A stretch of DNA of 64,000 nucleotides from Thermoanaerobaculia bacterium. GTDB lineage: Bacteria > Acidobacteriota > Thermoanaerobaculia > UBA5066. The translations under genes were made by a program, and so were the position numbers. Shown piece by piece: positions 1,934 to 63,339 of this stretch. The notes beneath the pieces were generated by a model, which searched no databases, was not told where the DNA came from, and saw only the letters and a list, made by a program, of their open reading frames with translations. Location: positions 1,568,001-1,632,000 of the forward strand of contig CAVRAY010000001.1 of NCBI GenBank assembly GCA_963719225.1, in the 5' to 3' direction. The stretch's first letter is position 1. The number at the start of each line of letters is the position of its first letter.

Positions 1934-2041
1934 GAGAAGAGTTTCTTGGAAAGAGGAAGAGGGCACGGGGGATTATTCTTGGAAGGGTGAGTGAAGCCGC
2001 GGCGGCACGACAGGCTCCGGCGCACTGAGGCGGCGACCCGT

Positions 2042-3367
2042 TCATGACCCTTTCGAAGAAATCTTTATCTTTCTCTTGATGACCTGCGAAAGCCTACGGA
2101 TCCCTTCGTCAATGACGTCCGGCGGCGCGTAGGAGAAGTTGAGCCGCATGGTCTCCTCGCCGCCGCCGCACGGGTAGAAGGCCGCGCCCGGGACGAAGGC
2201 GACGTTTTCCCGGATCGCCTCGTCGAGGAGCGCCGCGGTGTCGAATCCCTTCGGCAGCGTGGCCCACAGGAACAGGCCTCCCTGCGGCCGCGTCCAGCGG
2301 ACGCCGCGCGGAGCGTGACGCGCGAGGGAGGAGAGCATCGCGTCCCGGCGCTCGCCGTAGACCTTCCGGATGCGGCGGACGTGCCGGTCCAGGAATCCCC
2401 CTCTCGCGACCTCGTACGCCACGTACTGGCAGAAGGTCGAGGAATGGAGGTCCGCGCCCTGCTTGATCTGGACGAGCTTCGAGATCACGGCCTCGGGCGC
2501 CACGACCCAAGCCATCCTCAGGCCGGGTGCGAGAGTCTTGGAGAGCGTCGACATGTAGAGCACGTTGCCGGTGAAGGCTTTCTCACCGTTTCCGCAGCCG
2601 TGGAGCTCGGCGTCGAGCTTCACGAGCGACGGAAGGTGCTCGCCCTCGTACCGTAGCTGCCCGTACGGATCGTCCTCGACGATCGGGATGCCGTAGTGCG
2701 CCGCCCTCTCGACGACGTGGCGGCGCCGGGCGAGGCTCAACGTGACGCCGGCGGGATTCTGGAAGTTGGGTAGCACGTACAGGAACTTCGGACCGGCGCG
2801 CAGCTGGGTTTCGAGGACGCCGAGGTCGAGGCCTTCGTCGTCGATCGGCACCGGCAGGTACTCGGCCTGGTACGCGTTGAAGGCCTGGAGGGCCCCGAGG
2901 TACGTCGGCGCCTCGGTGAGCACCTGATCGCCGGGATTGATGAGGAGCTTGCCCACGAGATCGAGAGCCTGCTGCGAGCCGGACGTGATGAGGAGGTTCT
3001 CCGGCCTGACGACGACCCCGTAGCGCGCCATGTGGCGGACGAGGAGCTCGCGGAGGGGCCGGTAGCCTTCGGTCGTCGTGTACTGGAGGGCCGTCGTGCC
3101 GTGCTCGGTCAGGACGCGGTCCGTCGCCGCACGGATCTCCTCGACCGGGAAAACCTCGGGCGCCGGCAGCCCTCCGGCGAAGGAGATGATGTCGGGCTTT
3201 TCGGTGAGCTTCAGGAGCTCGCGGATCATGGAGGCCTTGATGCGCTGCGTGCGCTGCGCGAAACGTTGATTCCACGAGGTTTCCGGGGCGGGAGCGGCCG
3301 GGCGCGCGATGGTCCCGTCCGCGATCAGACTGCCGAGGAGAGGTTCCTCCTCCGAGACGATCGACAT
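2042..3367 (-). CDS. PLP-dependent class I/II aminotransferase (2-aminoadipate transaminase/LysN-like family)
   Basis: ISFAGGLP, PNFQNPAG, EDDPY, STLSKTLAPGLR; start chosen at MSIVSE. Confidence 0.85.
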   Translation of the reverse strand: MSIVSEEEPLLGSLIADGTIARPAAPAPETSWNQRFAQRTQRIKASMIRELLKLTEKPDIISFAGGLPAPEVFPVEEIRAATDRVLTEHGTTALQYTTTEGYRPLRELLVRHMARYGVVVRPENLLITSGSQQALDLVGKLLINPGDQVLTEAPTYLGALQAFNAYQAEYLPVPIDDEGLDLGVLETQLRAGPKFLYVLPNFQNPAGVTLSLARRRHVVERAAHYGIPIVEDDPYGQLRYEGEHLPSLVKLDAELHGCGNGEKAFTGNVLYMSTLSKTLAPGLRMAWVVAPEAVISKLVQIKQGADLHSSTFCQYVAYEVARGGFLDRHVRRIRKVYGERRDAMLSSLARHAPRGVRWTRPQGGLFLWATLPKGFDTAALLDEAIRENVAFVPGAAFYPCGGGEETMRLNFSYAPPDVIDEGIRRLSQVIKRKIKISSKGS

Positions 3368-3477
3368 GGACACACCCCCAAGGCAAGCGTCGGGCCGGAG
3401 GCGTCCGGCCGCCATGATGCGGGCTGATCAGGGCAAAAAACGCTCCGTGGACTCATGGCCGAAGGAAGTCACAAGAA

Positions 3478-3504
3478 GAGTCTGATAGACTCATGGCGAT
3501 GAGT
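3478..3504. promoter_or_regulatory. Putative antitoxin operator palindromes
   Basis: GAGTCT-gat-AGACTC (3478-3492) and ACTCAT-ggcg-ATGAGT (3489-3504) at the antitoxin start; GACTCATGGC also occurs at 3450. Confidence 0.5.
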
Positions 3505-3750
3505 AAGCGCCTTCAGGTCCTTCTCGACGAGCCCGAAATCCGCGAGATCCAGCGCGCCGCGCGCGCGAAGCGCATGACCGTGGCGGAGTGGGTGCGTGGT
3601 GCCCTTCGAGACGCGCGCCGGAAGGAGCCGCTCGGCGATGTTGCGGACAAGCTCGCAGCGATCCGACGGGCGGCCCGCCATCAGGGCCCGACCGCGGACA
3701 TCGGCCAGATGCTCGCTGAGATCGAGAAGGGATACGAATCGGGCGAGTGA
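3493..3750 (+). CDS. Ribbon-helix-helix antitoxin (VapB-like)
   Basis: 85 aa, SKRLQVLL...TVAEWVR RHH-like pattern; overlaps the downstream PIN toxin by 4 nt. Confidence 0.8.
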
Positions 3751-4142
3751 TCTTCGTCGATTCGAACGTCCCGATGTACCTCGTCGGGTCTGCACATCCC
3801 CACAAGGTCGACGCACAGAGGCTGCTCGAGCAGCTCATCTCTGAAAGGCGTCGCCTCGTGACGAACGTGGAGGTCCTGCAGGAGATCCTCCACCGCTACG
3901 TGTCCATCGACAGGCGGGACATGATTCAACTGGCCTTCGATGCCCTCCTGGCTGTCGTCGACGAGGTGTTTTCCGTTCAGGCCTCGACCGTTGGCCTCGC
4001 GAAGGCGATCGTCCTCGCCCGCCGGAAACTGTCGGCGCGTGACGCGCTGCACCTCGCCGTCATGGAAGAGCAGGGCGTGAGCGAGATCCTGACTTTCGAC
4101 GCGGGGTTCGACGGATACCCCGGCGTCACGCGACTTCGCTGA
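3747..4142 (+). CDS. vapC: PIN-domain toxin (VapC family)
   Basis: IFVDSN, VLQE, RDALHLA, TFDAGF acidic PIN motifs, 131 aa. Confidence 0.9.
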
Positions 4143-4374
4143 GCGTCGATACACGCCAAGAAGAACGGGAATTTCTTCGAGGGTGAGCGCGTCCGCCGCC
4201 GTGCTCAAAAGTAGCAACGGGGCGGAGCGGCACGTCGCCCGAGCAACCCCCGAACGTCCGTGCAGGGTACGGCGAGCGCCACGGGCTCGTAGTCACGAAC
4301 CGTCCCCTGCCGCTGTCGTCCGGAGACGGCACAAAAGGCTGCGCGAACAGGAGGACCGCGACTAGGAAGATCGT

Positions 4375-6465: not shown

Positions 6466-6635
6466 TCGGAGGTCCTCCGGAGTTTCGTTTCGGGGCGGGG
6501 ATTATAGGCGCGGCTGTTCAGGCGCAGCAGCTTCTTTTCGCCGGCCGGAGACTGCACAGGAAGAGGACACGGCGATTGCGCGGCTCTCCAGGGCCGCTTG
6601 CCGCGCGGCTGTTAGAATTTCGGGGATTCCGGGTC

Positions 6636-11224: not shown

Positions 11225-11301
<77 letters not shown>

Positions 11302-22917: not shown

Positions 22918-23005
22918 GAGGAGACCGGGTTTTCTTTCTCGGATTTTTTCTTCCAAGAAATCTCCGAAATCCCTTTCCTATCGATTCTTCACGCACAATG
23001 AATTC

Positions 23006-23850: not shown

Positions 23851-25635
23851 ATGCGCACGACACGCTTCACGGTCGCGATGCCGCGGCCCGAGACGCACCT
23901 TTACGACATCACCATGGAAGTCGACCCGAAGGGCGCGACGACTCTCGACCTCGTGCTCCCGGTGTGGACACCGGGGTCATACCTCGTCCGGGAGTTCTCG
24001 CGACACGTAAGGGATTTTTCTGCGAAAGAAAAGGGCGCCCGCGGGACCATTCCCGCCGAGAAGATCGCCAAGAACGTCTGGCGTCTCTCTTTACTTTCTA
24101 AGAAATCTTCTTCTTCATCCTCTCTTCTCCTCGTCTCCTATCGCGTCTACGCGCACGAACTTTCGGTCCGCACGTCACATCTCGACTCGTCGCACGGGTT
24201 CGGCAACGGCGCGAACCTCTTCTTCTATGTGGAAGGCCGGAAGGAGGAGCCGCAGGAGGTGCGATTCTCGCTGCCGCGCCTCTGGAAGGTCTCTATGGCC
24301 CTCCCCTCGCGCAGCGGCGTCTTTCGCGCGGCCGACTACGACGAGCTCGTGGATTCGCCTTTCGAATGCGGGACGCACCGCACGTTCGCGTTCACCGTGC
24401 GCGGCGTGCCGCATACGCTCGCTCTCTGGGGCGGCGGCAACGAGGACCCCGCGCGCCTCGCGAGGGACCTCAAGCGGCTCGTGCTCGAAGCCGCGGCGCT
24501 CTTCGGCGGCCTGCCGTACGAGCGTTACCTCTTCCTCGTCCACCTCTCCGCAGGCGCGCGCGGAGGGCTCGAGCATCGCTCCTCCCAGTCGGTCGCGCTC
24601 GATCCCCATGCGTTCCGGCCCGAAAAGTCCTACCGCGACGCGCTCCTCCTCTTTTCGCACGAGCTCTTCCACGCCTGGAACGTCAAGCGCATCCGGCCCG
24701 AGGCCTTCGGCCCGTTCGACTACGCCGGCGAGGTCTACACCGCGGACCTCTGGGCTCTCGAGGGGCTCACCTCCTACTACGAAGCGCTGCTCCTCGTTCG
24801 CGCCGGCCTTCTGACCGAGGCGCAGGCCTTCGAGGAGTGGATGCGGCACTGGAAGGCGCATCTCGTGACGCCGGGCCGTCTCGTTCAGAGCGCCGAGTCG
24901 GCCTCTTTCGACACCTGGATCCGCTTCTACCGGCCCGACGAGAACTCGGTGAACGTGGCGGAGAGCTATTACCGGCGCGGCGCGATCCTGGGCCTCGCGC
25001 TCGATCTGGCGCTCCGCCGCGCGACGGCCGGCCGCCGCGGCCTCGACGAGGTCTTTCGACGGCTCTTCAGGACGTACGCCTCGAAGGGCCGGGCATACCC
25101 GCCGGGAGCTTTCGAGGACGTGGCCGCGCGCGTCGCCCTCTCACGCCCCGCGGTGCGGCGCTTTTTCGACCGCTACGTGCGCGGCACCGGGACGCCGGAT
25201 CTCGCGCGCCTCCTCGGCGTCGCGGGCCTGAGGCTGCGCGAGGCGCCGGAAACCGAAGAAGGCGTTACCGACGCGATGGCCCCGCGGACGAGAGCGGACT
25301 TCGGCTGGAAGACGAAGCTCGAGGAGGGGAGGCTCGTCGTGTCGGAGGTGCTGGCGGGGAGGCCGGCGCAAGCCGCGGGGGTGAATGCGGGAGACGTGCT
25401 CGTCGCTCTCGACGGTCTCCGCGCGAGCGAGGAGCTCCTCGCGCGGCTCGAGAAGGAGCGCAAGCCGCAGAGCCCGGTGGACGTCGCGGTGTTCCGACGG
25501 GAGGTCCTGGAGACGCACCGCGTGCGGCTTGGAGGGAAACGTGCGTCCGTCTGGCGGATCGAGCCCGCTCCCGGGGCCGCGGCCGGCGCCCGTCGCCTGA
25601 AGAGGCGCTGGCTGAAGACGCGCGTCAGCGCTTGA
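23851..25635 (+). CDS. M61 glycyl aminopeptidase with PDZ domain
   Basis: PVWTPGSY, GGLEH, HELFHAWNVKRIRP, WALEGLTSYY, C-terminal PDZ-like region. Confidence 0.9.
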   Translation: MRTTRFTVAMPRPETHLYDITMEVDPKGATTLDLVLPVWTPGSYLVREFSRHVRDFSAKEKGARGTIPAEKIAKNVWRLSLLSKKSSSSSSLLLVSYRVYAHELSVRTSHLDSSHGFGNGANLFFYVEGRKEEPQEVRFSLPRLWKVSMALPSRSGVFRAADYDELVDSPFECGTHRTFAFTVRGVPHTLALWGGGNEDPARLARDLKRLVLEAAALFGGLPYERYLFLVHLSAGARGGLEHRSSQSVALDPHAFRPEKSYRDALLLFSHELFHAWNVKRIRPEAFGPFDYAGEVYTADLWALEGLTSYYEALLLVRAGLLTEAQAFEEWMRHWKAHLVTPGRLVQSAESASFDTWIRFYRPDENSVNVAESYYRRGAILGLALDLALRRATAGRRGLDEVFRRLFRTYASKGRAYPPGAFEDVAARVALSRPAVRRFFDRYVRGTGTPDLARLLGVAGLRLREAPETEEGVTDAMAPRTRADFGWKTKLEEGRLVVSEVLAGRPAQAAGVNAGDVLVALDGLRASEELLARLEKERKPQSPVDVAVFRREVLETHRVRLGGKRASVWRIEPAPGAAAGARRLKRRWLKTRVSA

Positions 25636-27101: not shown

Positions 27102-28406
27102 TCATTTTACTTCAACAGAGGCCGCAGCGGGCCCAAAAGACGGCCGGAGGCGACGAAGCCAGGCGCGGGCCGCGCGCGGACCGCGGATCTCCGAAGACGC
27201 GAGGGCGAGGTCGAAGGCGGCGAGGGCGTCTCCCAGTGTCTTCCCCTCCCCGAGGCCGAGAAGAGAAGAGATTTCTGCGAATGGAAGAGGACGGGTGGGC
27301 TTCAGGATCCGGCGGAGCGCGGTAGGCCTCCTTAGGATCCTTTCGGCGACATCGGCGAGGTCCCGCGCGCGCCTGTCGCCGGCAGCGCGAAGGAAGGCGG
27401 TGGATTCTGCTTCGAAAGGGGAAGAACGGCGCAGGAGCGCGGCGACGTCGCGGCGCGAGGGCGGGCGGGCGGCGCGTGGCCCCGAGAGCGGGAGAGCGTA
27501 GAGCCTGCTCGCGAGCCGCAGCTCTTCCCGGCTGACTTTCCACCTTCTAAGAAGATCTTCGGCTCTCTTCGGACCCATCGGATGAAGGAGGAGCACCCGC
27601 GCAACACGGGCGTCGCGGGAGTCGAGGCCAGAGACGAGAGAGAGACCGCGGCGGCGCTCGCGCGCCGCCGTGCTTAGAAGGAGGATGGAAAGGACGCCCG
27701 TTCGCTCGAGGAACCGCAGGGCGCGCATTCTTCCCTCCGCGGGCGCGCGGAGGAGCTTGTCGAGCTCGACGAGGCGCCGCTCCGCAGCAACCATTCGAAG
27801 CATCTTCGCGGCCTGACGAAGCTCCGGGATGGCGGCTCGCGCGACGTGGAATCCCGGCAGCTCCGCGAGAAACCGCGCGGCCCTCAGGACTCTCAAGGGA
27901 TCTTCCAGAAAGACGCCTGGCCTGGGCGGTTTGAGCCTCCTCGCCTTCAGGTCCGCGAGCGCGCCGGGAGCGCTCGAGAACGTGCCCCGAGGAAGCGAGA
28001 AAGAGAGCGCGTTGACCGTGAAGTCGCGCCGCAGGAGGTCGGCGGCGGGATCGCCCGCTTCTTCCCACACGTCGATCTCGTGCGCGCGAAACGGCACCTT
28101 GAGGATGCGCTTGGGCGCCGAGCCGATCGGCACGACGCGCGATCCGGCTCTCGTCGCGAGCCCGGTCGCGATCCTCTCTGCGCTCTTCGGCGGTGCGACG
28201 AGGTCGAGATCGCCGCCTTCTCTTCCGAGAAACGCGTCCCGCACCGCCCCCCCGACGACGCGGACGCCGTCCTCGGGTCGCGCGAGCGAAGCCGCGGCGG
28301 ACGCGTCGGCGCGCCTCAGGAGGGCGCGGAAGCCGCGCCGGACCGCGAAATCTTCGTTCAGCGGGACGCCTCGTCGCGAGCCGGCCGGGCCGGCCACGTG
28401 ACGCAT
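27102..28406 (-). CDS. Class II tRNA nucleotidyltransferase (probably CC-adding)
   Basis: VGGAVRD, DLDL, RRDFTVNA, EDPLRVLRAARF; start uncertain (possibly CTG at 28361 overlapping the upstream stop). Confidence 0.8.
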   Translation of the reverse strand: MRHVAGPAGSRRGVPLNEDFAVRRGFRALLRRADASAAASLARPEDGVRVVGGAVRDAFLGREGGDLDLVAPPKSAERIATGLATRAGSRVVPIGSAPKRILKVPFRAHEIDVWEEAGDPAADLLRRDFTVNALSFSLPRGTFSSAPGALADLKARRLKPPRPGVFLEDPLRVLRAARFLAELPGFHVARAAIPELRQAAKMLRMVAAERRLVELDKLLRAPAEGRMRALRFLERTGVLSILLLSTAARERRRGLSLVSGLDSRDARVARVLLLHPMGPKRAEDLLRRWKVSREELRLASRLYALPLSGPRAARPPSRRDVAALLRRSSPFEAESTAFLRAAGDRRARDLADVAERILRRPTALRRILKPTRPLPFAEISSLLGLGEGKTLGDALAAFDLALASSEIRGPRAARAWLRRLRPSFGPAAASVEVK

Positions 28407-32209: not shown

Positions 32210-34059
32210 GCGGACGGCGCTTTCTCGCCGCCGCGGCCGGCGCCGCGCTTTTCCTGCCGGCCGCCCCGTCGCTTCCCTCTGCTCCGGCCCGCCGGATCGA
32301 GGTGTCGCGGGACTTCGCCGTCCAGCGCGCGGACGGAGCGATCACCGTCGAGGCGCGGCCTCTCGAAGGGGAGACGCCGATCGAGTTCGTCCGCCGCGTC
32401 TCGACGGACGACGCGACGGCGCAGCGGCTGCTCGCCCTGCCGGGAGTCGCGGCGGGCACGCGAAGCGCCGTGCTCTCCTACGCCGCGCTCTCCGACGAAT
32501 CCAAGCGCGCCGCGATCGCGGCGCTCTTTCCGTCCGACGTGCGGGCGACGACGGGCTGGCTCCACATCGCGGTGGAGGAGGAACGTCTCGCCGGGATCGC
32601 CGAATGGTTCACGGGCACGGCCGACAACGCGAAGGCGCTGGCGACGGAGAACGCCCTCGGTCTCGACGTCGTGCCTCCCGGCGCGACCGTCCGGATTCCC
32701 GTGCACCTCCTCCTGCCGCCGTTCCGCGACGCCGAAAGCGTGCCCGACATGGAGCCGCCGAATCTCGTCTACGACCAGGACGAGAGGGGCCGCTACGCGG
32801 TGTACCGCCTGCGAAAAGGAGAGGCGCTCTATTCGGCGGTGGTGGTGCGCTTCACGGGCCGACTCGATGCCGTCGATGTGAACGACCTCGCCATGACCAT
32901 CGCGGCGCGCTCCGCGATCGAGAACGTCCACGCGATCCCGGTCGGTTACCCCGTGAAGATCCCGATGGAGTACCTGACCGAGGAGTTCCTCCCGAAGGGG
33001 GACCCGCGCTCCGTGGAGCGCGCGAAGGAGAAGGCCGAGTCCCAGCAGTTCGCGCGGCCCGAGATCGCCCGGGGCCTGGCGGGCGTGCGCGTGATCCTCG
33101 ACGCGGGTCACGGCGGCCGCGACACGGGGACTCTCCACGGGGACGTATGGGAATCGACGTACGTCTACGACGTCGCCTGCCGGCTGCGGAAGATCCTGGC
33201 CGAGAGAACGCGCGCCGAGGTCATCATGACGACGAAGGACTCGGCGCTGGGGTGGAAGGTGCCGGACCGCGACGGGCTTCGCGGTCGTCGGACCCAGTTC
33301 CTCCTCACCGACCCGGCCTACTCGCTCGCCGATCCCACGGTCGGCGTCAACCTCCGGTGGTACCTCGCGAACAGCCTGATCCGGCGGCCCGGGCCGGACG
33401 GCGAGAAGGTGCCTCCCGAACGGACGATCTTCGTCTCCCTTCACGCCGACTCGCTGCACCCGTCGGTGCGCGGCGCCATGGTCTACGTGCCCGGCGAGCG
33501 CTACCTGCGCGAACGCTACGGCAAGAAAGGTGCGGCGTACGCGGGGTATCGGGAGGTAAAGGAGCAGCCGGTCGTCTCGTTCAACCGCAAGGAGCGCGTC
33601 GCTTCCGAGGGCGCCTCCACGACGCTCGCGAACGCCATCATCGCCGCCATGCGCGAGGCGGGCCTGCCGATTCACAGTTTCTCGCCGGTGCGCACGCACG
33701 TGATCCGCTCGGGCCGCGAGTGGGTGCCGGCGGTCCTGCGCTACAACCGGGTCCCGAACCGGGTGCTCGTCGAGCTCGCGAATCTCGGAAACGAGGAGGA
33801 CCGCGCGCTCATGAAGACGCGCGCCTTCCGCGACTCGCTCGCCGACTCGCTCGCGTCCGCGGTCGTCGCCTTCTTCGGCGGCCCACCGCCCGGGCTCTAC
33901 GGGCCGGTGCCGCAGACCGCGTCCGCCCGGACGCCGAAACCGGTCAAGCCGGCGCCGAAAAGGCCGCGCAAGAGACGCTGGGGGCCACCGCCTCGAACCA
34001 GTTCCGGCGCGAGGCGTCGAGGAGTCCCGCGAGATCCACGAGCGCGACCGCACGGGTGA
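32206..34059 (+). CDS. N-acetylmuramoyl-L-alanine amidase (Amidase_3) with Tat signal
   Basis: TTG start, SGRRFL Tat motif; ILDAGHGG, SLHAD, VLVELAN zinc/catalytic motifs. Confidence 0.85.
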   Translation: MSGRRFLAAAAGAALFLPAAPSLPSAPARRIEVSRDFAVQRADGAITVEARPLEGETPIEFVRRVSTDDATAQRLLALPGVAAGTRSAVLSYAALSDESKRAAIAALFPSDVRATTGWLHIAVEEERLAGIAEWFTGTADNAKALATENALGLDVVPPGATVRIPVHLLLPPFRDAESVPDMEPPNLVYDQDERGRYAVYRLRKGEALYSAVVVRFTGRLDAVDVNDLAMTIAARSAIENVHAIPVGYPVKIPMEYLTEEFLPKGDPRSVERAKEKAESQQFARPEIARGLAGVRVILDAGHGGRDTGTLHGDVWESTYVYDVACRLRKILAERTRAEVIMTTKDSALGWKVPDRDGLRGRRTQFLLTDPAYSLADPTVGVNLRWYLANSLIRRPGPDGEKVPPERTIFVSLHADSLHPSVRGAMVYVPGERYLRERYGKKGAAYAGYREVKEQPVVSFNRKERVASEGASTTLANAIIAAMREAGLPIHSFSPVRTHVIRSGREWVPAVLRYNRVPNRVLVELANLGNEEDRALMKTRAFRDSLADSLASAVVAFFGGPPPGLYGPVPQTASARTPKPVKPAPKRPRKRRWGPPPRTSSGARRRGVPRDPRARPHG

Positions 34060-35452
34060 CGTCGGCGAGGAGCCGGGCGCGGGAAGGCGTGTCCCGCGGC
34101 GAGAGGGCCGCACGGCAGCAGGCGTCGAAGGCCGGCGCGAACTCGCCATGCGAACCGCACAGGAACGTGCCCGCGAGGTCGGGCCTTCCGGCCCGCCGCG
34201 CCGATTCCGAGAAGTGGGCCGCGGCGAAGTAGAGCTTGGACAACTGGACGAAGAGCGGAAAATCGCCGAGAGCCGAATAGAGCGCCGCGACCAGCCGGGC
34301 GGAGCGGTCGGCCTCCTGGAGGGTGAGGGCGCCGAAGGCCGCGAGGCGGGCGTCGAAGCGCGGCGTCCCGAAATCCTGCTCGAGCGCCTCGGCGAGCCGC
34401 TGAATGCCGAGGAGCGCGAGCGGGAAGCCCGTCGAGAGGAGCGGGTCGGCGAACGCCGCGGCCGACGGGAGGAGAGCCCACCCCGGCCCGGCGGCGCGGG
34501 CGCGCCGGAACCCGAGGCGCGGCTCATGGACGAACGGGCGGACGGGACGCGCGTTCGCGAACTGGGCGCCGACGCTCGGGAAGCGGGCGAGCAGACGCTC
34601 CCATGCGGGAGCGCCCTCCTCCAGACGAAGGTCGCGCGCGAGAGGCTTCTCGGCGGCGACGCCCGCGCTCGTGACGCCGTTCGAGAAGCGGAGGACCCAG
34701 ATCCAGCCGCCGGGGAAGACGTGGTGAACCGCCGCGTCGTCGACGGGGTAGGGCGGGGAGTCCGGCGACGCGAAGTCGGGCATCTCGTCGAGGCGGCGAA
34801 CGCCCGTGAAATGGGAGAAGAGGGATTCCGTCGAAGGAAGGCCGGCGGGAGCCGCCTCACCAGCGCCCAGCGCGGCGGCGAGCGCACCGTCGCGGCCCGA
34901 CGCATCCACGAGGAACGCGGCGCGGACGGAGAGCGGGCCATCTTCCCTTTCGAAGGAGATCTCCCATCCCCTTTCCCCGCGAACGACGTCCCGCAGGGCG
35001 GCGCGATCCAGATAACGGGCGCCGGCCGCCTCCGCCTCCTTCAGAAGAAGGAAATCGAATTCTTCCCGGTACCAATGCGTGTCGGCGACCTCGTCGTCCG
35101 GGCTCGCCGCGACGAGGAGCTGGTCCTGCCGATCCGGGGCGTTCGCGAACGGGCGACCCTCCGCGTGATGGAAGAAGCTGAAGCCGCGTTTCAGGCCGCA
35201 GCTCACCTCGGGGTACGCGCGCCTCCACGAGCCCCACTTCGCGAACGGCCGGATCCGGGGGAGGTCGTAGCGCCCGGCGATCTCCTCGAGCAGGAGATTC
35301 GCAAGCGGCGACGTGGACTCGCCGATCGCGAAACGCGGATGGGACCCTCTTTCGAGGAGCACGACGGAGAGTCCGAGCCGCCGCGACACGAGAGCGAGAA
35401 GCGTGCCCGCGAAGCCGGACCCCACGATCGCGACGTCGAACGCGCCTTGCAT
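33944..35452 (-). CDS. Flavin-dependent halogenase-family protein
   Basis: GSGFAG, PRFAIGES, GLKRGF (putative catalytic Lys), GWIWVL, AFADPLLSTG. Confidence 0.8.
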   Translation of the reverse strand: MQGAFDVAIVGSGFAGTLLALVSRRLGLSVVLLERGSHPRFAIGESTSPLANLLLEEIAGRYDLPRIRPFAKWGSWRRAYPEVSCGLKRGFSFFHHAEGRPFANAPDRQDQLLVAASPDDEVADTHWYREEFDFLLLKEAEAAGARYLDRAALRDVVRGERGWEISFEREDGPLSVRAAFLVDASGRDGALAAALGAGEAAPAGLPSTESLFSHFTGVRRLDEMPDFASPDSPPYPVDDAAVHHVFPGGWIWVLRFSNGVTSAGVAAEKPLARDLRLEEGAPAWERLLARFPSVGAQFANARPVRPFVHEPRLGFRRARAAGPGWALLPSAAAFADPLLSTGFPLALLGIQRLAEALEQDFGTPRFDARLAAFGALTLQEADRSARLVAALYSALGDFPLFVQLSKLYFAAAHFSESARRAGRPDLAGTFLCGSHGEFAPAFDACCRAALSPRDTPSRARLLADVTRAVALVDLAGLLDASRRNWFEAVAPSVSCAAFSAPA

Positions 35453-35455
35453 GCG

Positions 35456-36517
35456 TTACGCCCCAGTGCGCGAGCGACCCAGGCACGAGGGACATTGAGG
35501 AGGAAGAGGAAGATTTCGTTGAATGAGGTTCATTTCGCGGAGCCTGTGCACGCGAGCCGCGGCGCAGCAGGCCGGGGCGCTGAGAGCGTCCGCATTCCAG
35601 AGATCCGCAAGAACGAGACCCGCCGCGCGGTGTCGTCCTTCTTCACCTTCTAGGAAATCCCCCGGCGCTTTCCCCTCTTCCCCTTCTAAGAAATCTTCTC
35701 TTCGTTCTTCTTCCAGGGAATCTCCCAGCGCCATCTCCAGATCCTCGAGCGTCGGGGGAATGAACAGACCCTGCCTCTGCAGCTCTTCCATCGCGCCGTT
35801 GCCGAGGCGCGTCGGGATGAGAGAGACGACCTCCGCGCCCGCCCGAAAGGACGTCGCGACGCTCCTGCGCGTTGCGTCCGCCCACTCCTCTCTCCGCAGA
35901 AACGGGAGCCCGACGAGGACGAAGCTGCGGACGCCGATCGCGTGAGACGAGAGGAATCGACAGGCGTTCTCGAAATCTTCGACCGTCATCCCCTTGTCCA
36001 GTCTTCTCAGGATCTCCTCGTTGGCGGTCTCGAGCCCGAGAGCGATCTGGAGGCGCGGGCCCCCGAGGAGATCGCGAAACCGCAGGCTCGATTCGCCGAC
36101 GAGCGCGGGGTGGCATTCCACGACCACGCTCTCGAAACCGCGCGCGAGCGAGGCGATTTCCTCGTGGTCCCCCCGCGGAATCGACGCGCGGTCGAAGAAG
36201 CTGCCCGCGTTGTAGAGCTTCAGGACGTTCGCGGCGGGCAGCCTCTCGAGCGCGTAGCGGAGCTGCGCCGGAATCGCGCCCCTCGGCGTCGGCGCCTCGA
36301 GCGTGTTCTTCCAGAGATCGCACATGAGGCAGTGCCAGGGGCACTCCCGGTTCGTCAGGAAGACCGTGGCGACCCGGTCCGTTCCGCCGTCCACGCGGGG
36401 CTCCTCCTCGACGAAGACGCCGTACGGGCGGAACGGATCCACCGCGTTGCGGTCGGGCCGCAGGCCGAGGATCGCCTCCTCGCGCGCCTCGCGGTCGATG
36501 GAAGAGAAATCGATCAC
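35456..36517 (-). CDS. Radical SAM protein (Elp3/RaSEA-like)
   Basis: CPWHCLMC, KLYNAGSFFD, VECHP, GLETA; GTG at 36517 overlaps the upstream TGA. Confidence 0.85.
   Translation of the reverse strand: MIDFSSIDREAREEAILGLRPDRNAVDPFRPYGVFVEEEPRVDGGTDRVATVFLTNRECPWHCLMCDLWKNTLEAPTPRGAIPAQLRYALERLPAANVLKLYNAGSFFDRASIPRGDHEEIASLARGFESVVVECHPALVGESSLRFRDLLGGPRLQIALGLETANEEILRRLDKGMTVEDFENACRFLSSHAIGVRSFVLVGLPFLRREEWADATRRSVATSFRAGAEVVSLIPTRLGNGAMEELQRQGLFIPPTLEDLEMALGDSLEEERREDFLEGEEGKAPGDFLEGEEGRHRAAGLVLADLWNADALSAPACCAAARVHRLREMNLIQRNLPLPPQCPSCLGRSRTGA
35682..35696 (+). repeat. Dispersed motif CCTTCTAAGAAATCT, perfect copy
   Basis: Identical 15-mers at 63076-63090 (+) and 62053-62067 (-); near copy at 35646. 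Confidence 0.7.
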
Positions 36518-47067: not shown

Positions 47068-47990
47068 AGCGCCCTTCTCGCGTGGTAGCTCGACCTGACG
47101 AGCGGTCCTGATTCGACGAGAGAAAACCCCATCTCCTCCCCCTCTGTTCGAATCTCCTCGAACTCCGCCGGCGTGTAGTACCGCTCGATCGGGAGGCGGC
47201 GCGCGTGGGGCTGGAGGTACTGGCCCACCGTGACGACGTCCGCGCCGCAGGACCGGATGTCGCGTAGCGTCGCCCGAAGCTCCTCGCGCGTCTCGCCGAG
47301 CCCCACCATGACCCCGCTCTTCACTTTCAAAGAAATCTTCTCCTCGTCTCTCCTCTTGGCGGCCCTCCGGAGGAGCTCCAGCGATCGGGCGTAGATCGCG
47401 TCCGGCCGCACGCGCCGGTAGAGGCGCTCGACGGTCTCCGTGTTGTGGTTGAGCACCTCCGGCCACGCGTCGAGGACGGTCCCGAGGGCGGCCTCGCTGC
47501 CGAGAAAGTCCGGGATGAGAACCTCGATCGTGACGCCGGTCGCGAGGGAGCGAATCTCCCGGATCGTCGCCGCGAAGTGAGCGGCGCCGCCGCCCGGGAG
47601 CTCGTCGCGGTTCACGGACGTTATGACGGCGTGTGCGACGCCGAGCGTCTTCACCGCCTCGGCCACGTGGCGCGGCTCTTCGGGGTCGAGAGGCTTCCCG
47701 GCACCCTGCGCCACCGCGCAGAAGCCGCAATGCCGCGTGCACACGTCGCCCATGAGCATGAACGTCGCCGTCTTCTCGACGCCCCAGCATTCGAAGATGT
47801 TCGGGCAGCGCGCCTCCTGGCACACGGTGTTGAGGTGCTTGTCCTCCAAGAGTTTCGCGATGCCGCGCGAGGTCTCGTTGTCGTGGACCCGCACCTTGAG
47901 CCACTCGGGCCGGGGGGTGATGCCGTAAAGAGGCCGCGCGGCGCTCACGCTTTTCAGTCTAGCGCGTGTGACTGCGTTGCGATCGGCCAT
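47064..47990 (-). CDS. lipA: Lipoyl synthase
   Basis: [35 protein letters not shown]. Confidence 0.96.
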
Positions 47991-49967: not shown

Positions 49968-51640
49968 CTACTCGATCGCCTCCAGCTCGCTCCACGCGCC
50001 CTTCTCGAGCGTCGCCTTGACGACGTTCACGAACGCATCTCCCTCGGCCCCGTCGATGAGCCGGTGGTCGAACGTGAGCGCGATGTAGCCCATCGTCTTG
50101 ATGGCGAGCGAATCGGAGCCGTCCGGCATCTCGACGACCTTCGCCCTCTTCTCGATCGCGCCGACGCCCATGATGGCGACCTGCGGCTGGTTGATGACGG
50201 GCGTCGCGAAGAGCGACCCGAACGAGCCGTGATTCGTCACGGTGAACGTGCCCCCCGCCACCTCGTCCGGCACGAGCTTCTTCGCGCGCGCCCGCGTGGC
50301 GAGGTCGTTCGCCGCGCGCGCCAGGCCCACGAGGGAGAGGTCGTCCGCGCGGCGGATGACGGGCACGATGAGACCCCAGTCGAGCGCGACGGCGATACCC
50401 AGGTTCACCTCGCGGTGATAGACCACGTCGTCGCCGACGATGGAGGCGTTCACGAGCGGGCGTGCCTTGAGAGCCGCGACCGCCGCGCGCAGAAGGAAGG
50501 GCAGGTACGACAGCTTCGTGCCGTACTGCTGCTCGAAGCGGGCCTTCACGCGGTTCCTCAGCTTCGCGATGCCCGAGTAGTCGACTTCGAACACGGTCGT
50601 CACGTGAGCCGACGTCTGCTTCGACTCGACCATCCGCTGCGCGATCTTCCGTCGCATCGCGCTCATGGGCTCGACGGTGACGCTGCTTCCGGACGGGAAC
50701 GCGAGCGCCGTGGGCGACGGCGCGGGCGCGCGGGGGGGACCGGAGCTTCCGCGGGTCGCGCGGCGAGGACCGCGGGAGCCGGCTCGGGAGCTGCGGGAGA
50801 GGGAGCCGGAGGTTCGGAGATTTTCTGAGAAGGCGCGGGAGCGGGCGCTGCAGCCTGTGTTGCCGGTGCCGCGGCGGCAGCCGGCTGTACACCCTTCGAA
50901 GAATCTTCTCTCCCGGTCCCCGGCGCGGCCGAAGGCCGCGCTCCTCCCGCCAGGTATCCCTCGATGTCCTGCTTCGTCACCCGGCCCGAGATGCCCGTGC
51001 CCGGGATCTGCGAGATGTCGACGCCCTTCTCCTCCGCGATCGCGCGGACGACGGGCGACGAGCGCCGCCGAAGGAGCTCTTCCTGTGATTCGCCGGGTTG
51101 AGCGGGAACGGAAGAAGGAATTGAAGATTGCTTGGAAGGCGCGGGAACGGCTGCCGCAGATGGTGTCGCCGGAGCCGCGGCGGGGGCCGGCTGCCCACCC
51201 TTCGAAGAAACCGGCGCCGCCGGAGGCGGCGCTCCTGTCCCCGGTCTCTCTTTAGCCTTCGAAGAATCTTCCGCCGGCGGAGCCGGCGGTGGCGCCGCGG
51301 CGGCCTGAGCCGCCATTCCCGCCGCGGTCGAGCTTTTCACCTCGTCCGACGAAGCCTGTTCTTCCGCAGCCGGCGGCGCAGGCGCCGCAGCGGCTTTCTC
51401 TCCCGCCTCTCCGAGGCGCGCGACGACGGTGTTGATGGGCACTGTCTGCCCTTCTGGGACGAGGATTTCGAGGAGGGTACCGCTGCCCGGAGAGGGGATT
51501 TCGGCGTCCACCTTGTCGGTGGAAATCTCGAAGAGAGGTTCGTCGCGCTTCACCGCGTCGCCGGGCTTCTTGAGCCATTTCGTGAGCGTGCCTTCGGCGA
51601 TCGACTCGCCCATCTGCGGCATGATGACGTTCGTCGGCAT
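49968..51640 (-). CDS. 2-oxoacid dehydrogenase E2 (dihydrolipoamide acyltransferase), one apparent frameshift near 50735
   Basis: STDKVD lipoyl domain and GTGISGRVTKQD E3-binding domain in one frame; DHRLIDG catalytic domain in another; switch near the G7 run at 50732-50738. Confidence 0.85.
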
Positions 51641-57091: not shown

Positions 57092-57122
57092 GGCCCGCCG
57101 GAAACGGCGGGCCTTTTCGTTT
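57092..57122 (+). terminator. Attenuator terminator before asd
   Basis: GGCCCGCCG-GAAA-CGGCGGGCC followed by TTTTCGTTT, ending 15 nt before the asd ATG. Confidence 0.85.
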
Positions 57123-57137
57123 CGAGAAGGAGAACCC

Positions 57138-58217: not shown

Positions 58218-59578
58218 CCGACGTCCTCAAGTTCGGCGGGACGTCGGTGGGATCGGCCGAGCGGATCCGGGACGTCGCGCGCCTCGTCGAAACGCGCGGG
58301 GGAGAGCCGGGCCTCGTCGTCGTCTCGGCGATGGCCGGGGTGACGGACCTTCTGGTCGGATTGAAGAATTCTTCGAAAGAGAAGGAGCGGGCCGCTGCCG
58401 AGTCCGCGCTCGACGAGCTGGAAGGTCGCCACCGCGCGGCGCTCGATGGCCTTTCCCTTCCCGAAAGCGAGAAGCGGATCTGCGCCGTCGCGATCGACGA
58501 GGAGATGCGGCGATGCCGGGAGCTGTCTCTCGGGATCTCCCTACTCGAAGAAATCTCTCCTCGAACCTCGGATGCGCTCCTGGCGATCGGAGAATTGATC
58601 TGCTCGCGCCTCGTCGCCGCCGCGCTCCGCGCGAGCGGCGCGGAGGCCGTGTGGATCGATCCGCGCGACGTCCTCGCGACGGACCGCTCGTACGGCGCGG
58701 CGCTGGCGGACGAGAAGGAGACCGCGATCCGCGTGGCCAGGCACGTCGCGCCTCACCTCGCGGCGAGCCGGATCGTCGTCACGGGGGGCTTCGTCGGCGC
58801 CGCGCCGGACGGCTCGACGACGACCCTCGGCCGGGGAGGGTCGGACTACTCGGCCGCGCTCTTCGGCGCCGCGCTCCACGACATCGGGCGGTCCGTGGGC
58901 CGGATCGAGATCTGGACGGACGTGGACGGAATCCTGACCGCCGATCCACGCGTGGTTTCCGCGGCGCGGCTCGTGCCGGAGGTGAGCTATCCCGAGGCGG
59001 CCGAGCTGGCGTTCTTCGGAGCGAAGGTCCTCCATCCGGCCACGATCCGCCCGGCCGTGGCGCGCGGGATCCCGGTCGCCGTCAAGAACACGTTCCGCCC
59101 CGAATGCCCTGGAACCGTCGTGCGCCAGGACGTGCCCGGGAACGGCGTCCGGGCCGTCGCCATGCGCGGGGGGGTGACGGCGCTCTTCGTGGGCAGCCCG
59201 CGCATGCTGCTCGCCCACGGCTACGCGGCGAAGGTCTTCTCCGTCTTCGAGAAGCACGGCGTGCCGGTGGACGTCATCGCGACGAGCGAGGTCTCGATTT
59301 CCATCACGGTGAGCGAAAAGGCGCCCCTCGAAGGCGTCGTGCGCGACCTTTCCGAGTTCGCCGAGGTCTCGCTCCTCAAGCATCTCGCGGTCGTGTCCGT
59401 CGTCGGAAAGGGTCTGCGCTCGACGGCCGGGGTCGCCTTCCGGATCTTCGGCGCGGTCGGCGACGTGAACGTCGTCCTCATCTCGCAGGGCGCATCCGAC
59501 ACGAACGTGACTTTCGTGGTCGACGGAAACGACGCACCAGAAGCGCTGCGAAGGCTCCACAGGGAGTTCTTCGAATGA
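58214..59578 (+). CDS. lysC: Aspartate kinase
   Basis: KFGGTSV, LGRGGSDYSA, WTDVDG, GAKVLHP, two ACT domains. Confidence 0.93.
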   Translation: MTDVLKFGGTSVGSAERIRDVARLVETRGGEPGLVVVSAMAGVTDLLVGLKNSSKEKERAAAESALDELEGRHRAALDGLSLPESEKRICAVAIDEEMRRCRELSLGISLLEEISPRTSDALLAIGELICSRLVAAALRASGAEAVWIDPRDVLATDRSYGAALADEKETAIRVARHVAPHLAASRIVVTGGFVGAAPDGSTTTLGRGGSDYSAALFGAALHDIGRSVGRIEIWTDVDGILTADPRVVSAARLVPEVSYPEAAELAFFGAKVLHPATIRPAVARGIPVAVKNTFRPECPGTVVRQDVPGNGVRAVAMRGGVTALFVGSPRMLLAHGYAAKVFSVFEKHGVPVDVIATSEVSISITVSEKAPLEGVVRDLSEFAEVSLLKHLAVVSVVGKGLRSTAGVAFRIFGAVGDVNVVLISQGASDTNVTFVVDGNDAPEALRRLHREFFE

Positions 59579-60267
59579 AAGCCCTTCTGGTCGGATACGG
59601 GAAGATGGGGAAAGCCATCGAGATGGCGCTGATCCACAGCGGGCACGAAGTCGCCGGACGGTTGGGGCGCAAAGAGATTTCGGACTTTCCGATCTGCGAA
59701 GTCGCCTTTGAGTTCACCACGCCCGCCTCCGCTCCTCTGGTGGTCCCCCTTCTCCTTTCTCAGAAAATCCCGGTCGTCTCCGGGACGACCGGCTGGGACA
59801 CGACTTCGGCCGCGCACCTCGCACGGGAACAAAAGACTCTTTTTCTTCACTCCTCGAATTTTTCCCTAGGCGTCGCCGCGCTCAGGCGCGCGGTCGCCGC
59901 CGCTGCCGCCGCTCTCGCGCCGTTCTCCGAGTTCGAGCCGGGAATCGTGGAGCGGCATCACGCGGCCAAGAAAGACTCCCCCTCGGGAACCGCACGCACC
60001 CTCGCGCTCGACATCACGCGCGAGCCTCTCTCGAAGAGGTCCATCCCGATCGTCTCCCTCAGGCAGGGCGGCCAGCCGGGAGAGCATTCGGTCTACTTCG
60101 AGGGCACGGACGAGACGCTGGAGCTCGTGCACCGCGCCCGCTCGCGTTCGATCTTTGCGCTTGGCGCCGTGCGCGCCGCGGAATGGATGATCGACTCGGG
60201 CCGCTCGGGCCCGGTGACCTTCGACGAATTCTTCGACGATCTGTCGCTCAAGGGAGGCACTTCATGA
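59575..60267 (+). CDS. dapB: 4-hydroxy-tetrahydrodipicolinate reductase
   Basis: GYGKMG, SGTTGW, NFSLGV, ERHHAAKKDSPSGTA. Confidence 0.92.
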   Translation: MKALLVGYGKMGKAIEMALIHSGHEVAGRLGRKEISDFPICEVAFEFTTPASAPLVVPLLLSQKIPVVSGTTGWDTTSAAHLAREQKTLFLHSSNFSLGVAALRRAVAAAAAALAPFSEFEPGIVERHHAAKKDSPSGTARTLALDITREPLSKRSIPIVSLRQGGQPGEHSVYFEGTDETLELVHRARSRSIFALGAVRAAEWMIDSGRSGPVTFDEFFDDLSLKGGTS

Positions 60268-61232
60268 TTACGTCAGCACCCGGGCAGAACTCTTCATCCT
60301 CCAGGAATCTCCCTCTCTCCGGGGTCTTCACCGCGATCGTCACGCCGTTTCGCGACGACGGGTCCGTCGACGAAGCGGGCCTCCGCCGGCTCGCGAAACG
60401 CCAGATCGAGGGCGGCGTCGCGGGTCTCGTCCCGTGCGGGACGACGGGCGAAGCCGTCACGCTGGACGCCGAGGAGCACGAGCGTGTCGTCGCCATCGTC
60501 GCCGAGGAGGCGCGGACGTCGTCGCGGCGCGTCACGGTGATCGCGGGCTGCGGCTCGAACGACACGCGGAAGTCACAGGCTCTCGCCGAACGGTGCCGTC
60601 GGGCGGGCGCCGACGCGCTTCTCGTCGTCACGCCTTACTACAACAAGCCCACGCCGAGAGGCCTGGTCGCGCACTTCCTGGCCGTCGCCGACGCGGGACG
60701 CCTGCCGCTCGTTCTTTACAACGTGCCGGGACGCACCGGACTGAACATGCAGCCGGACACCATTCTCGAGCTCGCGAAGGACCCGCGCATCGTCGCCGTG
60801 AAGGAAGCTTCGGGCAGCCTCGACCAGGCCTGCGAGATCCTCCGCGCCCGTCCGGCCGGATTCACCGTCCTCTCCGGCGAGGACTCGCTGGCGATCCCGA
60901 TGATCTCCTGCGGCGCCGAGGGCGTGATCGCGGTCGTCTCGAACGAGGCCCCCGGTCTTTACGCGGAGGCGATTGCCGCGGCCCTCGCCGGGAATCGCGC
61001 GCGCGCGTCGGAGCTCCAGGCAAAGATCTTCCCGCTCATGAAAGCGAATTTCCGCGAATCGAATCCGATCCCGGTCAAGTGGGCTCTCGAGCGGCTCGGC
61101 CTGATCGGGGGCGCGCTGCGTCTCCCGCTCGTTCCGCTCTCGCCGCAGCACCAAGCCCCGGTCGAGGAGGCGCTCAGGACCGCCGGTCTCCTCGATGCCG
61201 CGGGCAAGCCGGTCGAGATGGCGGCCGCGTGA
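60264..61232 (+). CDS. dapA: 4-hydroxy-tetrahydrodipicolinate synthase
   Basis: GTTGE, PYYNKP, YNVPGRTG, VKEASG, SNPIPVK. Confidence 0.95.
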   Translation: MITSAPGQNSSSSRNLPLSGVFTAIVTPFRDDGSVDEAGLRRLAKRQIEGGVAGLVPCGTTGEAVTLDAEEHERVVAIVAEEARTSSRRVTVIAGCGSNDTRKSQALAERCRRAGADALLVVTPYYNKPTPRGLVAHFLAVADAGRLPLVLYNVPGRTGLNMQPDTILELAKDPRIVAVKEASGSLDQACEILRARPAGFTVLSGEDSLAIPMISCGAEGVIAVVSNEAPGLYAEAIAAALAGNRARASELQAKIFPLMKANFRESNPIPVKWALERLGLIGGALRLPLVPLSPQHQAPVEEALRTAGLLDAAGKPVEMAAA

Positions 61233-61996
61233 CGCGCGAGGAGGTCGTGGCTCTTCTCGAGGCGCTCGAGCGCGGCGAGGTCCGCGCGGCTTCTTCTGAC
61301 GCCGAGGGAAACTGGGTTGCCAACGCGGGCGTCAAGGAGGGCATCCTCGAGGCCTTCCGGCTCGGCGTCGAAGAGCCGAGCGAGGCCGGCCCGCTGCTCT
61401 TCCGGGACCGCGACACGCTGCCACCCCGCCGGCCTCTTCCCGAAGGCGTGCGCGTCGTCCCGGGCGGGACGGCGCTTCGCCGCGGCGCGTTTCTCGCGAG
61501 GGGCGTCGTCGTGATGCCGCCCGCCTACGTGAACGTGGGCGCGTACGTCGACGAGGGATCGATGATCGACAGCCATGCGCTCGTGGGCTCCTGCGCGCAG
61601 ATCGGGAAGAAGGTCCACCTCTCGGCGGCCGCGCAGGTGGGCGGCGTCCTCGAGCCCGTGGGCGCGGTCCCCGTCGTCATCGAGGACGAAGTCTTCGTGG
61701 GCGGCGGTGCCGGGATCTACGAAGGCGTCCGCGTGAGGAAGCGAGCCGTCCTCGCGGCGGGCGTCATCCTGACGGCCTCGAGCGTCGTGTTCGATCCCGT
61801 GAACGAGCGGGAGCTGCGCTCGGCGCCGGGCCGCCCGCTCGTCATCCCCGAGGGCGCCGTCGTCGTCCCGGGCTCGAGGCGGGCCTCGGGCGCCTGGGCG
61901 GAGGCCCGGGGGCTTTCGCTCTCGGCTCCGATCATCGTGAAGTATCGCGACGCGAAGACGGACGCGAGGACGGTGCTCGAGAGCGCGCTGCGGTGA
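61229..61996 (+). CDS. dapD: Tetrahydrodipicolinate N-succinyltransferase
   Basis: RVVPGG, YVNVGAYVD, VGSCAQIG, GGVLEP, KYRDAKT. Confidence 0.92.
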   Translation: MTREEVVALLEALERGEVRAASSDAEGNWVANAGVKEGILEAFRLGVEEPSEAGPLLFRDRDTLPPRRPLPEGVRVVPGGTALRRGAFLARGVVVMPPAYVNVGAYVDEGSMIDSHALVGSCAQIGKKVHLSAAAQVGGVLEPVGAVPVVIEDEVFVGGGAGIYEGVRVRKRAVLAAGVILTASSVVFDPVNERELRSAPGRPLVIPEGAVVVPGSRRASGAWAEARGLSLSAPIIVKYRDAKTDARTVLESALR

Positions 61997-62052
61997 AGCG
62001 AAGAGAAGAGATTTGCACGCGGCCTTCGGCCGCGCGACCGGGGAGTCGGAGA

Positions 62053-62067
62053 AGATTTCTTAGAAGG
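62053..62067 (-). repeat. Dispersed motif CCTTCTAAGAAATCT, perfect copy (reverse)
   Basis: AGATTTCTTAGAAGG in the dapD-lysA spacer. Confidence 0.7.
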
Positions 62068-62076
62068 GAATAGGGA

Positions 62077-63339
62077 TTGCCGGACTCCGTTTTGCGTCGT
62101 GCCGCGAGTCTCTTCGGAACGCCGCTGTATCTGTACGACTTCGATGTGATCGAACGCCAGGTGTTGCGCCTCAGGCACGCCCTCGGCCCCCGCTTCGAGC
62201 TCGCGTATGCGGTCAAGGCCAACCCCTCGCTCGGAATTCTTTCCTTTCTAAGAAAATTCGGTCTCTCCTCGGACGTCGCGTCCCGGGGCGAGCTGCTCGC
62301 GGTGCGCCTGGCCGGATGTCCACCTTCCAAGATCCTCTCGACCGGCCCCGCGAAAACCGACGCCGACCTCGAAGCGCTCGTGCGCGCTCGAGTGTCGATT
62401 GTCCATGCGGAGGGTGAATGGGAGCTCGAACGCCTCGAGGAACTGGCAAGACGCCTGAGAAGGCAAGTTCCCGTGGGCCTTCGCCTGAACCCGCCCTGGG
62501 GCATTGCCGAAAAGCGCGTCATCATCGGTGGCCCCGGCGCGAAGAAGTTCGGATTCGACTTGAAGAGCGCGAGAGACGTTCTTCGAACGACGAAGAAATT
62601 CCCGCATCTCGACGTCTGCGGCTTTCAGGTGTTCAACGCCTCGAACGTCCTCGACGCGCGGCTCCTCGTCGAGAACACGCGTCGCGTGCTCGACCTCGCT
62701 CTTTCACTTTCGAAGAAATACGGCGTTCCGCTCCGCTCCGTGGATTTCGGTGGCGGCTTCGGCGTGCCATACGCCGGAAGAGAAAGACCACTGGATCTAG
62801 GAGTTCTTGGAAAGGGGCTGAGGGAGGTCGCGAAGGAGGCGCGCTCGAGCGGCCTGCCCGACTCGACTCGCCTCGTGTTCGAGCCCGGGCGCTTTCTCGT
62901 GGCCGAAAGCGGAACGTACCTCGTGAAGGTTCTGGGGACGAAACGGAGCCGCGGCGTCGACTACGTCCTCATGGATGGCGGTGTCCACCACTTCCTCCGC
63001 CCGGTCCTCCTCGGAACTCCCCACCGCGTCAGGCTCGTCAAAGGAACGGCGGGCGCTCGCGGCGGCCGGTCTTCACCTTCTAAGAAATCTCTGGTTCTTT
63101 CCGGTCCCCTCTGTACGTCTCTCGACATCCTCCATCCGGCCGCGCACCTCCCGCTCCCCGCCCGTGGCGACCTCCTCGCCTTCGAGAAAGCGGGCGCCTA
63201 CGGCTTCACCGAGTCGATGCCGCTCTTCCTCTCGCACGCGTGGCCGGCCGAGGTCGCCGTGTGGAAAGGTCGAATCACTCTCCTGAGGAGGCCGCCGACG
63301 GTGGAATCGCTCCTTCGTGCGCAGAGGCGGCAGGTGTGA
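62077..63339 (+). CDS. lysA: Fold-type III PLP decarboxylase, probable diaminopimelate decarboxylase
   Basis: YAVKAN, KFG, DFGGG, EPGR, GPLC, GAYG; last gene of the dap operon. Confidence 0.75.
   Translation: MPDSVLRRAASLFGTPLYLYDFDVIERQVLRLRHALGPRFELAYAVKANPSLGILSFLRKFGLSSDVASRGELLAVRLAGCPPSKILSTGPAKTDADLEALVRARVSIVHAEGEWELERLEELARRLRRQVPVGLRLNPPWGIAEKRVIIGGPGAKKFGFDLKSARDVLRTTKKFPHLDVCGFQVFNASNVLDARLLVENTRRVLDLALSLSKKYGVPLRSVDFGGGFGVPYAGRERPLDLGVLGKGLREVAKEARSSGLPDSTRLVFEPGRFLVAESGTYLVKVLGTKRSRGVDYVLMDGGVHHFLRPVLLGTPHRVRLVKGTAGARGGRSSPSKKSLVLSGPLCTSLDILHPAAHLPLPARGDLLAFEKAGAYGFTESMPLFLSHAWPAEVAVWKGRITLLRRPPTVESLLRAQRRQV
63076..63090 (+). repeat. Dispersed motif CCTTCTAAGAAATCT, perfect copy
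   Basis: Inside lysA, encodes PSKKS. Confidence 0.7.

Follow-up and report, generated by a model that had tools for sequence, protein, structure and literature searches.

The 64-kb window analysed here (the whole stretch of DNA, 64,000 bp) belongs to the 4.75-Mb, 68% GC genome of an uncultured soil Acidobacteriota, assembled in two contigs (C1 and C2) and called G000 below. It holds, among others, lpxA, lexA, lipA, a 2-oxoacid dehydrogenase E2 gene and the genes for aspartate kinase (aspK), dapB, dapA and lysA, as called by a self-trained gene caller whose gene borders are approximate. Within and between these genes lie copies of a short motif, the subject of this work: an asymmetric, pyrimidine-flanked TTCNAAGAA word of about 33 bp. 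Our 33-bp position weight matrix (PWM), trained on the genome, reads as a pyrimidine tract, TTC-[T/G]-AAGAA, an A and a second pyrimidine tract; a copy in this sense is a pyrimidine (+) arm, and its reverse complement a purine (-) arm. A preliminary description of the window had reported a dispersed 15-mer and proposed that it is a DNA-level signal selected over coding preference. The three perfect copies it listed, at 35682 (+), 62053 (-) and 63076 (+), are all present at those positions, and the genome-trained matrix recovers every variant on its list, the one at 51199 being weak (score 11). Further sites, mostly partner arms, are found at 24018-, 27273-, 27408-, 34949+, 35515-, 51129-, 58369- and 62804- (Table 1). 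Nine matches to the 15-mer with at most two mismatches occur in the window, where dinucleotide shuffles predict 0.03.

Table 1. Motif sites in the window, and one tRNA gene. Positions are those of the window; PWM scores follow the order of the arms.
Feature	Position	Strand	PWM score	Context
Cluster: purine (-) arms, cores 1943 and 1976; pyrimidine (+) arm, core 2052	1931..2072	both	34.6, 23.1, 31.9	Between lpxA and the 3' end of an aminotransferase gene
Single arm, core 4173	4161..4193	-	21.9	Right after a vapC-like gene
tRNA-Pro gene	11225..11298	+		
Single arm, core 22951	22939..22971	+	23.4	Right after lexA
Pair 24018- / 24096+, 78 bp	24006..24116	both	26.8, 43.1	In M61 peptidase gene (Pfam)
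Arms 27273-, 27408-, 27545+	27261..27565	both	30.3, 21.5, 29.5	In tRNA nucleotidyltransferase-like gene
Single arm, core 34949	34937..34969	+	27.9	In FAD-oxidoreductase gene (33944-35452, -; Pfam)
Weak - arm 35515; tandem + arms 35648 and 35684; weak 35711	35503..35731	both		In radical SAM gene; contains perfect 15-mer 35682
Arm, core 47326	47314..47346	+	36	In lipA; conserved in sister genome G048, decayed in G047 and G049
Pair 50823- / 50895+, 72 bp	50811..50915	both		In linker of E2 gene
Pair 51129- / 51258+, 129 bp	51117..51278	both		In lipoyl-to-E3-binding linker of E2
Pair 58369- / 58544+, 175 bp	58357..58564	both		In aspartate kinase; position conserved genus-wide; spacer gap-free against motif-free outgroups
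Arm, core 59757	59745..59777	+		In dapB, encodes LSQK; partner arm deleted here, present in most congeners
Weak arm	60287..60319	+	13.7	At dapA start; stronger and with a - partner in several congeners
Pair 62057- / 62246+, 189 bp	62045..62266	both		Across lysA start; contains perfect 15-mer 62053
Arm, core 62709	62697..62729	+		In lysA, where it encodes LSKK; the partner near 62579 is strong in congeners and weak in G000
Pair 62804- / 63078+, 274 bp	62792..63098	both		In lysA; contains perfect 15-mer 63076

Across G000 there are 848 strong PWM sites (826 once 1-bp duplicates are dropped), 28 copies of the perfect 15-mer and 273 copies of TTCTAAGAA. The codon-preserving shuffle that had been suggested as a check reveals a clear enrichment: called genes contain 157 copies of TTCTAAGAA, against 1-4 in five within-gene synonymous shuffles, and 388 sites scoring at least 24, against 16-21. 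The motif is real and genome-wide, far above what synonymous codon choice produces. Copies do occur in both orientations, as reported. Among the 541 of 848 sites that are intragenic, 270 lie on the coding strand and 271 on the opposite one. Their positions along the gene are approximately uniform, and + and - sites are similarly numerous on both replichores (by inspection of 100-kb bins). The orientation of the motif does not track replication direction, in which it differs from FtsK-orienting polar sequences (KOPS), Chi and Ter.

The unit of the signal is an oriented pair, made up of a purine (-) arm, 65-200 bp of ordinary gene sequence and a pyrimidine (+) arm. Neighbours within 200 bp stand in this order 276 times and in the opposite order twice, and for adjacent sites 20-300 bp apart the corresponding counts are 259 and 9. 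An inward partner is present for 615 of the 826 strong sites, and 177 of 305 pairs lie wholly within one gene. Pair spacing has a sharp onset at 65-68 bp, a peak at 70-95 bp and a tail to about 200 bp. The clustering noted in the preliminary description is thus seen, its real form being this pairing. A hairpin or duplication origin of the pairs can be rejected, as there is no partner-specific similarity: across 235 pairs, similarity between true partners does not exceed that between shuffled ones (z -0.1 for the inside, 0.3 for the outside and 2.2 for the core), and duplexes with chimeric partners are equally stable (-13.9 kcal/mol, compared with -13.2 for own partners). Nor do the spacers fold better than matched controls (120 spacers tested). 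It follows that every arm conforms to a consensus by itself, in the manner of protein sites. The spacers are mutually unrelated except within paralogous Ser/Thr kinase genes. These form an array at G000:C1:2293000-2320000, with scattered paralogues, and each carries a 93-bp pair at the same place, in the sister genus too.

The same observations bear on whether the pairs are relics of a mobile doublet, such as the ends of REPINs (doublets of repetitive extragenic palindromic, REP, sequences) or of miniature inverted-repeat transposable elements (MITEs), a possibility raised earlier in the form of a relic micro-element. Two inverted arms around a spacer of about 70-140 bp do resemble REP doublets, whose spacers are near 70-110 bp in the cited part of the REPIN account (PMC3116915). 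But arms show no greater complementarity to their own partners than to others, and the spacers are native sequence, unrelated to one another and gap-free against motif-free orthologues, which argues against a hairpin, REPIN or MITE. Moreover, the sites are mostly intragenic, show no compensatory pairing and hold fixed ancestral positions, and no Y1/RAYT-type transposase is detected in G000 at E<=1e-8. We regard this explanation as already largely refuted and give it only a trace of probability. At the same threshold such transposases occur in 2 of 15 genus genomes and in 16 of 16 other genomes, most of them motif-free; an apparent anti-correlation between motif and transposase fails in the sister genus, whose densest genome carries four.

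It is also conceivable that the signal acts in RNA, with the purine arm serving as a Shine-Dalgarno-like element, the pyrimidine arm as a Rho site or terminator, or the two together as an mRNA stem. The purine arm contains a GAAGGTGA stretch, the word resembles the junction between the 16S 3' end and the internal transcribed spacer of G000, and some intergenic pairs start right after stop codons. However, the sites do not peak at the distance from starts expected of a ribosome-binding site, favour neither strand nor convergent spacers between genes and show no partner-specific pairing, and the only Rfam match in the window is one tRNA; we therefore consider an RNA-level role very improbable. 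The 16S likeness (G000:C1:905529-905555, covering the 16S rRNA 3' end and the start of the spacer) scores below the site threshold and is probably a coincidence. The word may also resemble eukaryotic STAT sites, a Firmicute dif arm and inverted origin-loading boxes.

Comparison with relatives indicates how the word came to be written into genes. In aspK, dapB and lysA the outgroup residues have given way to motif peptides, in most cases at unchanged length and with some arms in short insertions, and the spacers align without gaps to motif-free orthologues. The earlier suggestion that copies favour linkers, termini and insertions accordingly describes some arms; it does not extend to the many length-neutral substitutions in conserved enzymes or to the near-uniform distribution along genes. 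Motif sites are also held in terminal extensions of two ribosomal protein genes (G000:C1:2690773-2695693), which we take from their sequences to be L30- and L29-like. Across 18 orthologous loci, eight of the window's pair positions (50.8-63.1 kb) recur, with varying arm strength. All 24 of the 24 genomes of the genus have many copies of the 11-mer, whereas 16 genomes from two other families together contain a single copy (a tally that includes G025). Within the family, the paired pattern is found in 24/24 genomes of the genus, 5/6 of one sister genus and 0/22 of eight other genera, and the sister-genus sites occupy the same genes. At homologous sites G048 keeps 5/5 (score at least 10), G047 is intermediate, and G067 and G056 have none. 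In G049 the median score at 128 homologous positions is -14; it falls to -19 when the codons of these peptides are resampled and is -29 for controls. Of the 128 positions, 93 lie above codon expectation, and the sites of G049 have decayed to remnants. The simplest reading of these distributions, which is drawn from genus labels, would be one gain in the common ancestor of the two genera followed by decay in some lineages. Taken together, the synonymous shuffles, the lack of coding-strand bias, the replacement of outgroup residues and the decay in G049 uphold the proposal of a DNA-level signal kept against codon preference. It is a clade-restricted, paired signal and apparently an undescribed one, as the literature we searched (subscription papers not covered) gave no description of it.

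Beyond the pairs lie weaker half-sites of the same sense, about 30 and 65-70 bp outward from the core, in which just the downstream part of the word is retained. With a half-site model trained on half of the sites and scored on the other half, they are found at 52 of 400 held-out sites, compared with 8/400 and 3/400 in more distant windows and 11/400 on the inner side. Codon usage is altered both within the spacer and to a distance of about 100 bp, with a GC content at third codon positions (GC3) of 0.80 as opposed to 0.886, and synonymous sites in the spacer are shifted to A/T, most of all for CG to TG (172 vs 65 expected). A raised mutation rate in spacers can be set aside: four-fold-site divergence is 0.437 there and 0.420 in the same genes, and it is higher in 8 of 13 genes, an excess that is slight and inconsistent across genes.

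This compositional shift would suit sites at which a DNA-tracking repair or replication enzyme, and not a structural protein, is loaded or halted with polarity: a helicase, nuclease or ring loader placed on the spacer from both sides. The fixed orientation, the sharp lower bound at 65-68 bp and the lack of helical phasing would likewise suit tracking or two ring footprints, for which inverted origin-loading sites offer an analogy. On the other hand, four-fold divergence in the spacers is barely raised, replication proceeds from one origin with polar KOPS-like octamers of its own, and no enzyme candidate emerged. We think such an enzyme improbable.

The sites are unevenly placed on the chromosome. 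In G000, dnaA, parB and one canonical parS lie at 326-335 kb of C2, and dif lies at position 2,037,568 of C1. For 454 loci, with the kinase array removed and C2 left out beyond about 550-600 kb (an approximately 75%-identical inverted copy from a relative), density is 59.5 loci/Mb within 1 Mb of oriC and 138/Mb beyond (p 6e-17), and the step near 1 Mb is present in both genes and spacers. Mapping relative to origin and terminus had been proposed previously, and in G000 it brings out this 2.3-fold difference. In G019, few sites fall in the windows that correspond to the origin-proximal arm, though most of these can be aligned, and terminus-orthologous windows are rich; since the G019 assembly puts the rich windows close to dnaA, the pattern follows ancestral position and says nothing about present distance. 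Loci are clumped (coefficient of variation of gaps 1.2), and long site-free gaps coincide with accessory-looking regions. Neither the oriented pairs, nor the outer half-sites, nor this origin-distal enrichment featured in the preliminary description.

Uptake sequences (USS and DUS, the uptake signal sequences and DNA uptake sequences) come to mind at this point. In such a model the transformation or recombination machinery would prefer word-bearing DNA, perhaps gripping a loop between inverted copies, and the word would spread by molecular drive. As in the cited part of an account of USS/DUS (PMC2817400), the motif has hundreds of copies in both orientations, is lineage-specific, is about 30 bp long with a short core (9 bp here) and has been written into the proteome by in-place mutation. 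The large site-free gaps on accessory-looking regions and the wide variation in density between relatives also fit, ComEC is present, and a PilT ATPase is encoded in the window. But according to that same part of the account USS/DUS are spaced more evenly than random and pair as close dyads at intergenic terminators (PMC2817400), whereas our loci are clumped and origin-distal, more than half of the pairs lie within one gene at 65-200 bp, and convergent spacers are not favoured. ComEC also occurs in motif-free genera and in the decayed G049, and drive would not predict origin-distal enrichment. An uptake-like signal seems to us rather unlikely.

Our own reading, in which we place about even confidence, is that the motif marks the sites of a putative, lineage-specific chromosome-organising DNA-binding protein. 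Consensus-fitted arms, indifference to the direction of transcription and replication, fixed orientation and a minimum spacing together point to a protein at two duplex sites, while the rise in density away from the origin and the arrays of half-sites leading outward speak for a role in organising the chromosome. We propose that the protein reads the word on double-stranded DNA and sits on two sites simultaneously, so that it bridges or brackets the 65-200 bp separating the arms, and that it would then spread outward over the weaker half-sites; the minimum spacing of about 65 bp might be the footprint of two complexes. Its role would be in nucleoid organisation, such as compaction, cohesion or control of the traffic of SMC (structural maintenance of chromosomes) complexes or translocases. 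More tentatively still, and with considerable doubt, the clade may possess a sequence-encoded chromatin-positioning code, in which several hundred oriented pairs would nucleate protein arrays with steps of about 30 and 70 bp and bracket short segments mainly in origin-distal regions, a code that would have rewritten conserved enzymes, been gained once and now be in the process of loss in sisters.

Several results weigh against a chromosome-organising protein. Paired-pattern counts range from 15 to 184 among congeners and G049 retains 24 strong sites in 1.54 Mb (16 sites/Mb), a spread and a fall that would suit a drive-decay balance or a dispensable function. Pair spacing shows no 10.5-bp helical phasing (Z 1.2), and single arms remain strong after partner loss, as in dapB and at the lysA start, which suggests that pairing is not obligatory. 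The positional bias is weak in G052 (the same genome as G041), where 41 of 62 exact sites lie within 1 Mb of a dif placed by synteny (p 0.04, or 0.14 without the kinase array), and a special role at dif is rejected because the sites flanking it are absent in G017, G004 and G024. The search for a reader among MatP, ParB, Xer, HU, ScpA and ComEC candidates also came up empty. MatP (PF06303) is found in 0 of 5 genomes, with a positive E. coli control. The ParB encoded near the terminus belongs to a second parAB common to three families of the order and has a similar helix-turn-helix in motif-free relatives. The tyrosine recombinases are XerC/XerD-like or mobile, with no extra core one, and the extra paralogue of HU/IHF type, an HU, is shared with the decayed G049 and the motif-free G058. 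Subtraction against the available 1.54 of about 4.2 Mb (37%) of G049 left 142 soluble genes, mostly toxin-antitoxin, insertion sequence (IS) and surface proteins, with no obvious candidate by eye. Two further candidates were rejected: ScpA is present in 52 of 53 genomes and does not track the motif, and ComEC is present in 9 of 10 genomes searched, with motif-free genera and G049 among them.

How does the motif compare with known organising sites? Reiterated, terminus-biased sites such as matS and XDS (XerD-binding sites) can organise chromosomes, according to the parts of two accounts cited here (PMC11564523, PMC11840125), and our sites share with matS their reiteration and their bias away from the origin (PMC11564523). 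They differ in number and reach, with 826 sites all round the chromosome and a 2.3-fold bias, compared with 35-43 matS per chromosome within about 0.6 Mb in the cited part (PMC11564523). The motif is, in addition, asymmetric and paired, and with no MatP in the five genomes, the matS-like role that had been suggested finds no footing in its known reader. A parS-like role fares no better, as the single canonical parS sits at oriC and is a different word; nor did we find a ParB that is restricted to the motif-bearing clade or has a changed recognition helix, as might be expected for CTPase sites of the parS/ParB or Noc/NBS (Noc-binding site) type. XDS/XerD and archaeal TrmBL2 roadblocks of Smc-ScpAB (PMC11840125) are comparable in being AT-rich sites with a possible role in SMC traffic, and ScpA is present here. 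Our sites are far more numerous and are known from sequence, and paired geometry does not appear in the cited part of that account (PMC11840125); ScpA and XerC/D also occur in motif-free relatives. In short, the motif is written like uptake sequences, outlined like REPINs and biased like matS, and it fails a defining test of each.

Few bacterial systems are known in which a reiterated signal overrides coding (uptake sequences, Chi/KOPS, matS), and in none that we compared do oriented pairs lie within genes and have half-site arrays leading outward. We think there is a fair chance that this reiterated genomic signal is a new kind of chromosome-organising code. Its sharply bounded clade, with dense, sparse and decayed genomes, offers a natural gain-and-loss series for finding the reader through whole-genome comparison, and the same series lets the reach of DNA-level selection or drive on the proteome be measured. 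It also calls for caution, as it is the DNA signal that gives rise to odd peptides (SKKS, FLE) and low codon scores in these genomes.

A number of smaller observations were made along the way. A search of viral contigs with one strict form of the paired pattern, a narrow test, gave 0 matches, and in other families no separate motif dialect was seen near the terminus (200 kb inspected in G028 and 200 kb in G033). The latter stretch (G033:C1:870001-1070000, L135-L144) is rich in tandem heptamer repeats of TGAAACC type that are unrelated to the motif. Contigs of four sequencing runs, viewed for pair inversion or excision, came from relatives. A tyrosine recombinase at G000:C1:1115037-1115990, which we take from its sequence to be integron-integrase-like, stands beside several IS copies. 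A second parA-parB pair adjoins dif (G000:C1:2037568-2039524, L004), and likewise in G028, G033, G048, G049, G066 and G067; in closed genomes it lies about half a chromosome from the origin parB. We found nothing on terminus-linked ParAB in the literature searched, and it may deserve a study of its own. G000 also has a polar GGGGGAG-type octamer skewed between replichores, likely the local KOPS. The excluded part of C2 (G000:C2:~600000-802000) repeats C2 6-223 kb in inverted orientation at approximately 75% identity, has a higher GC3 and a second transfer-messenger RNA, and is probably a chimeric piece from a related species. Finally, the E2 gene of the window (49968-51640, minus strand) consists of two overlapping frames split near 50.7 kb; 17 of 18 orthologues are one open frame, and the split is likely an assembly indel or a recent frameshift.

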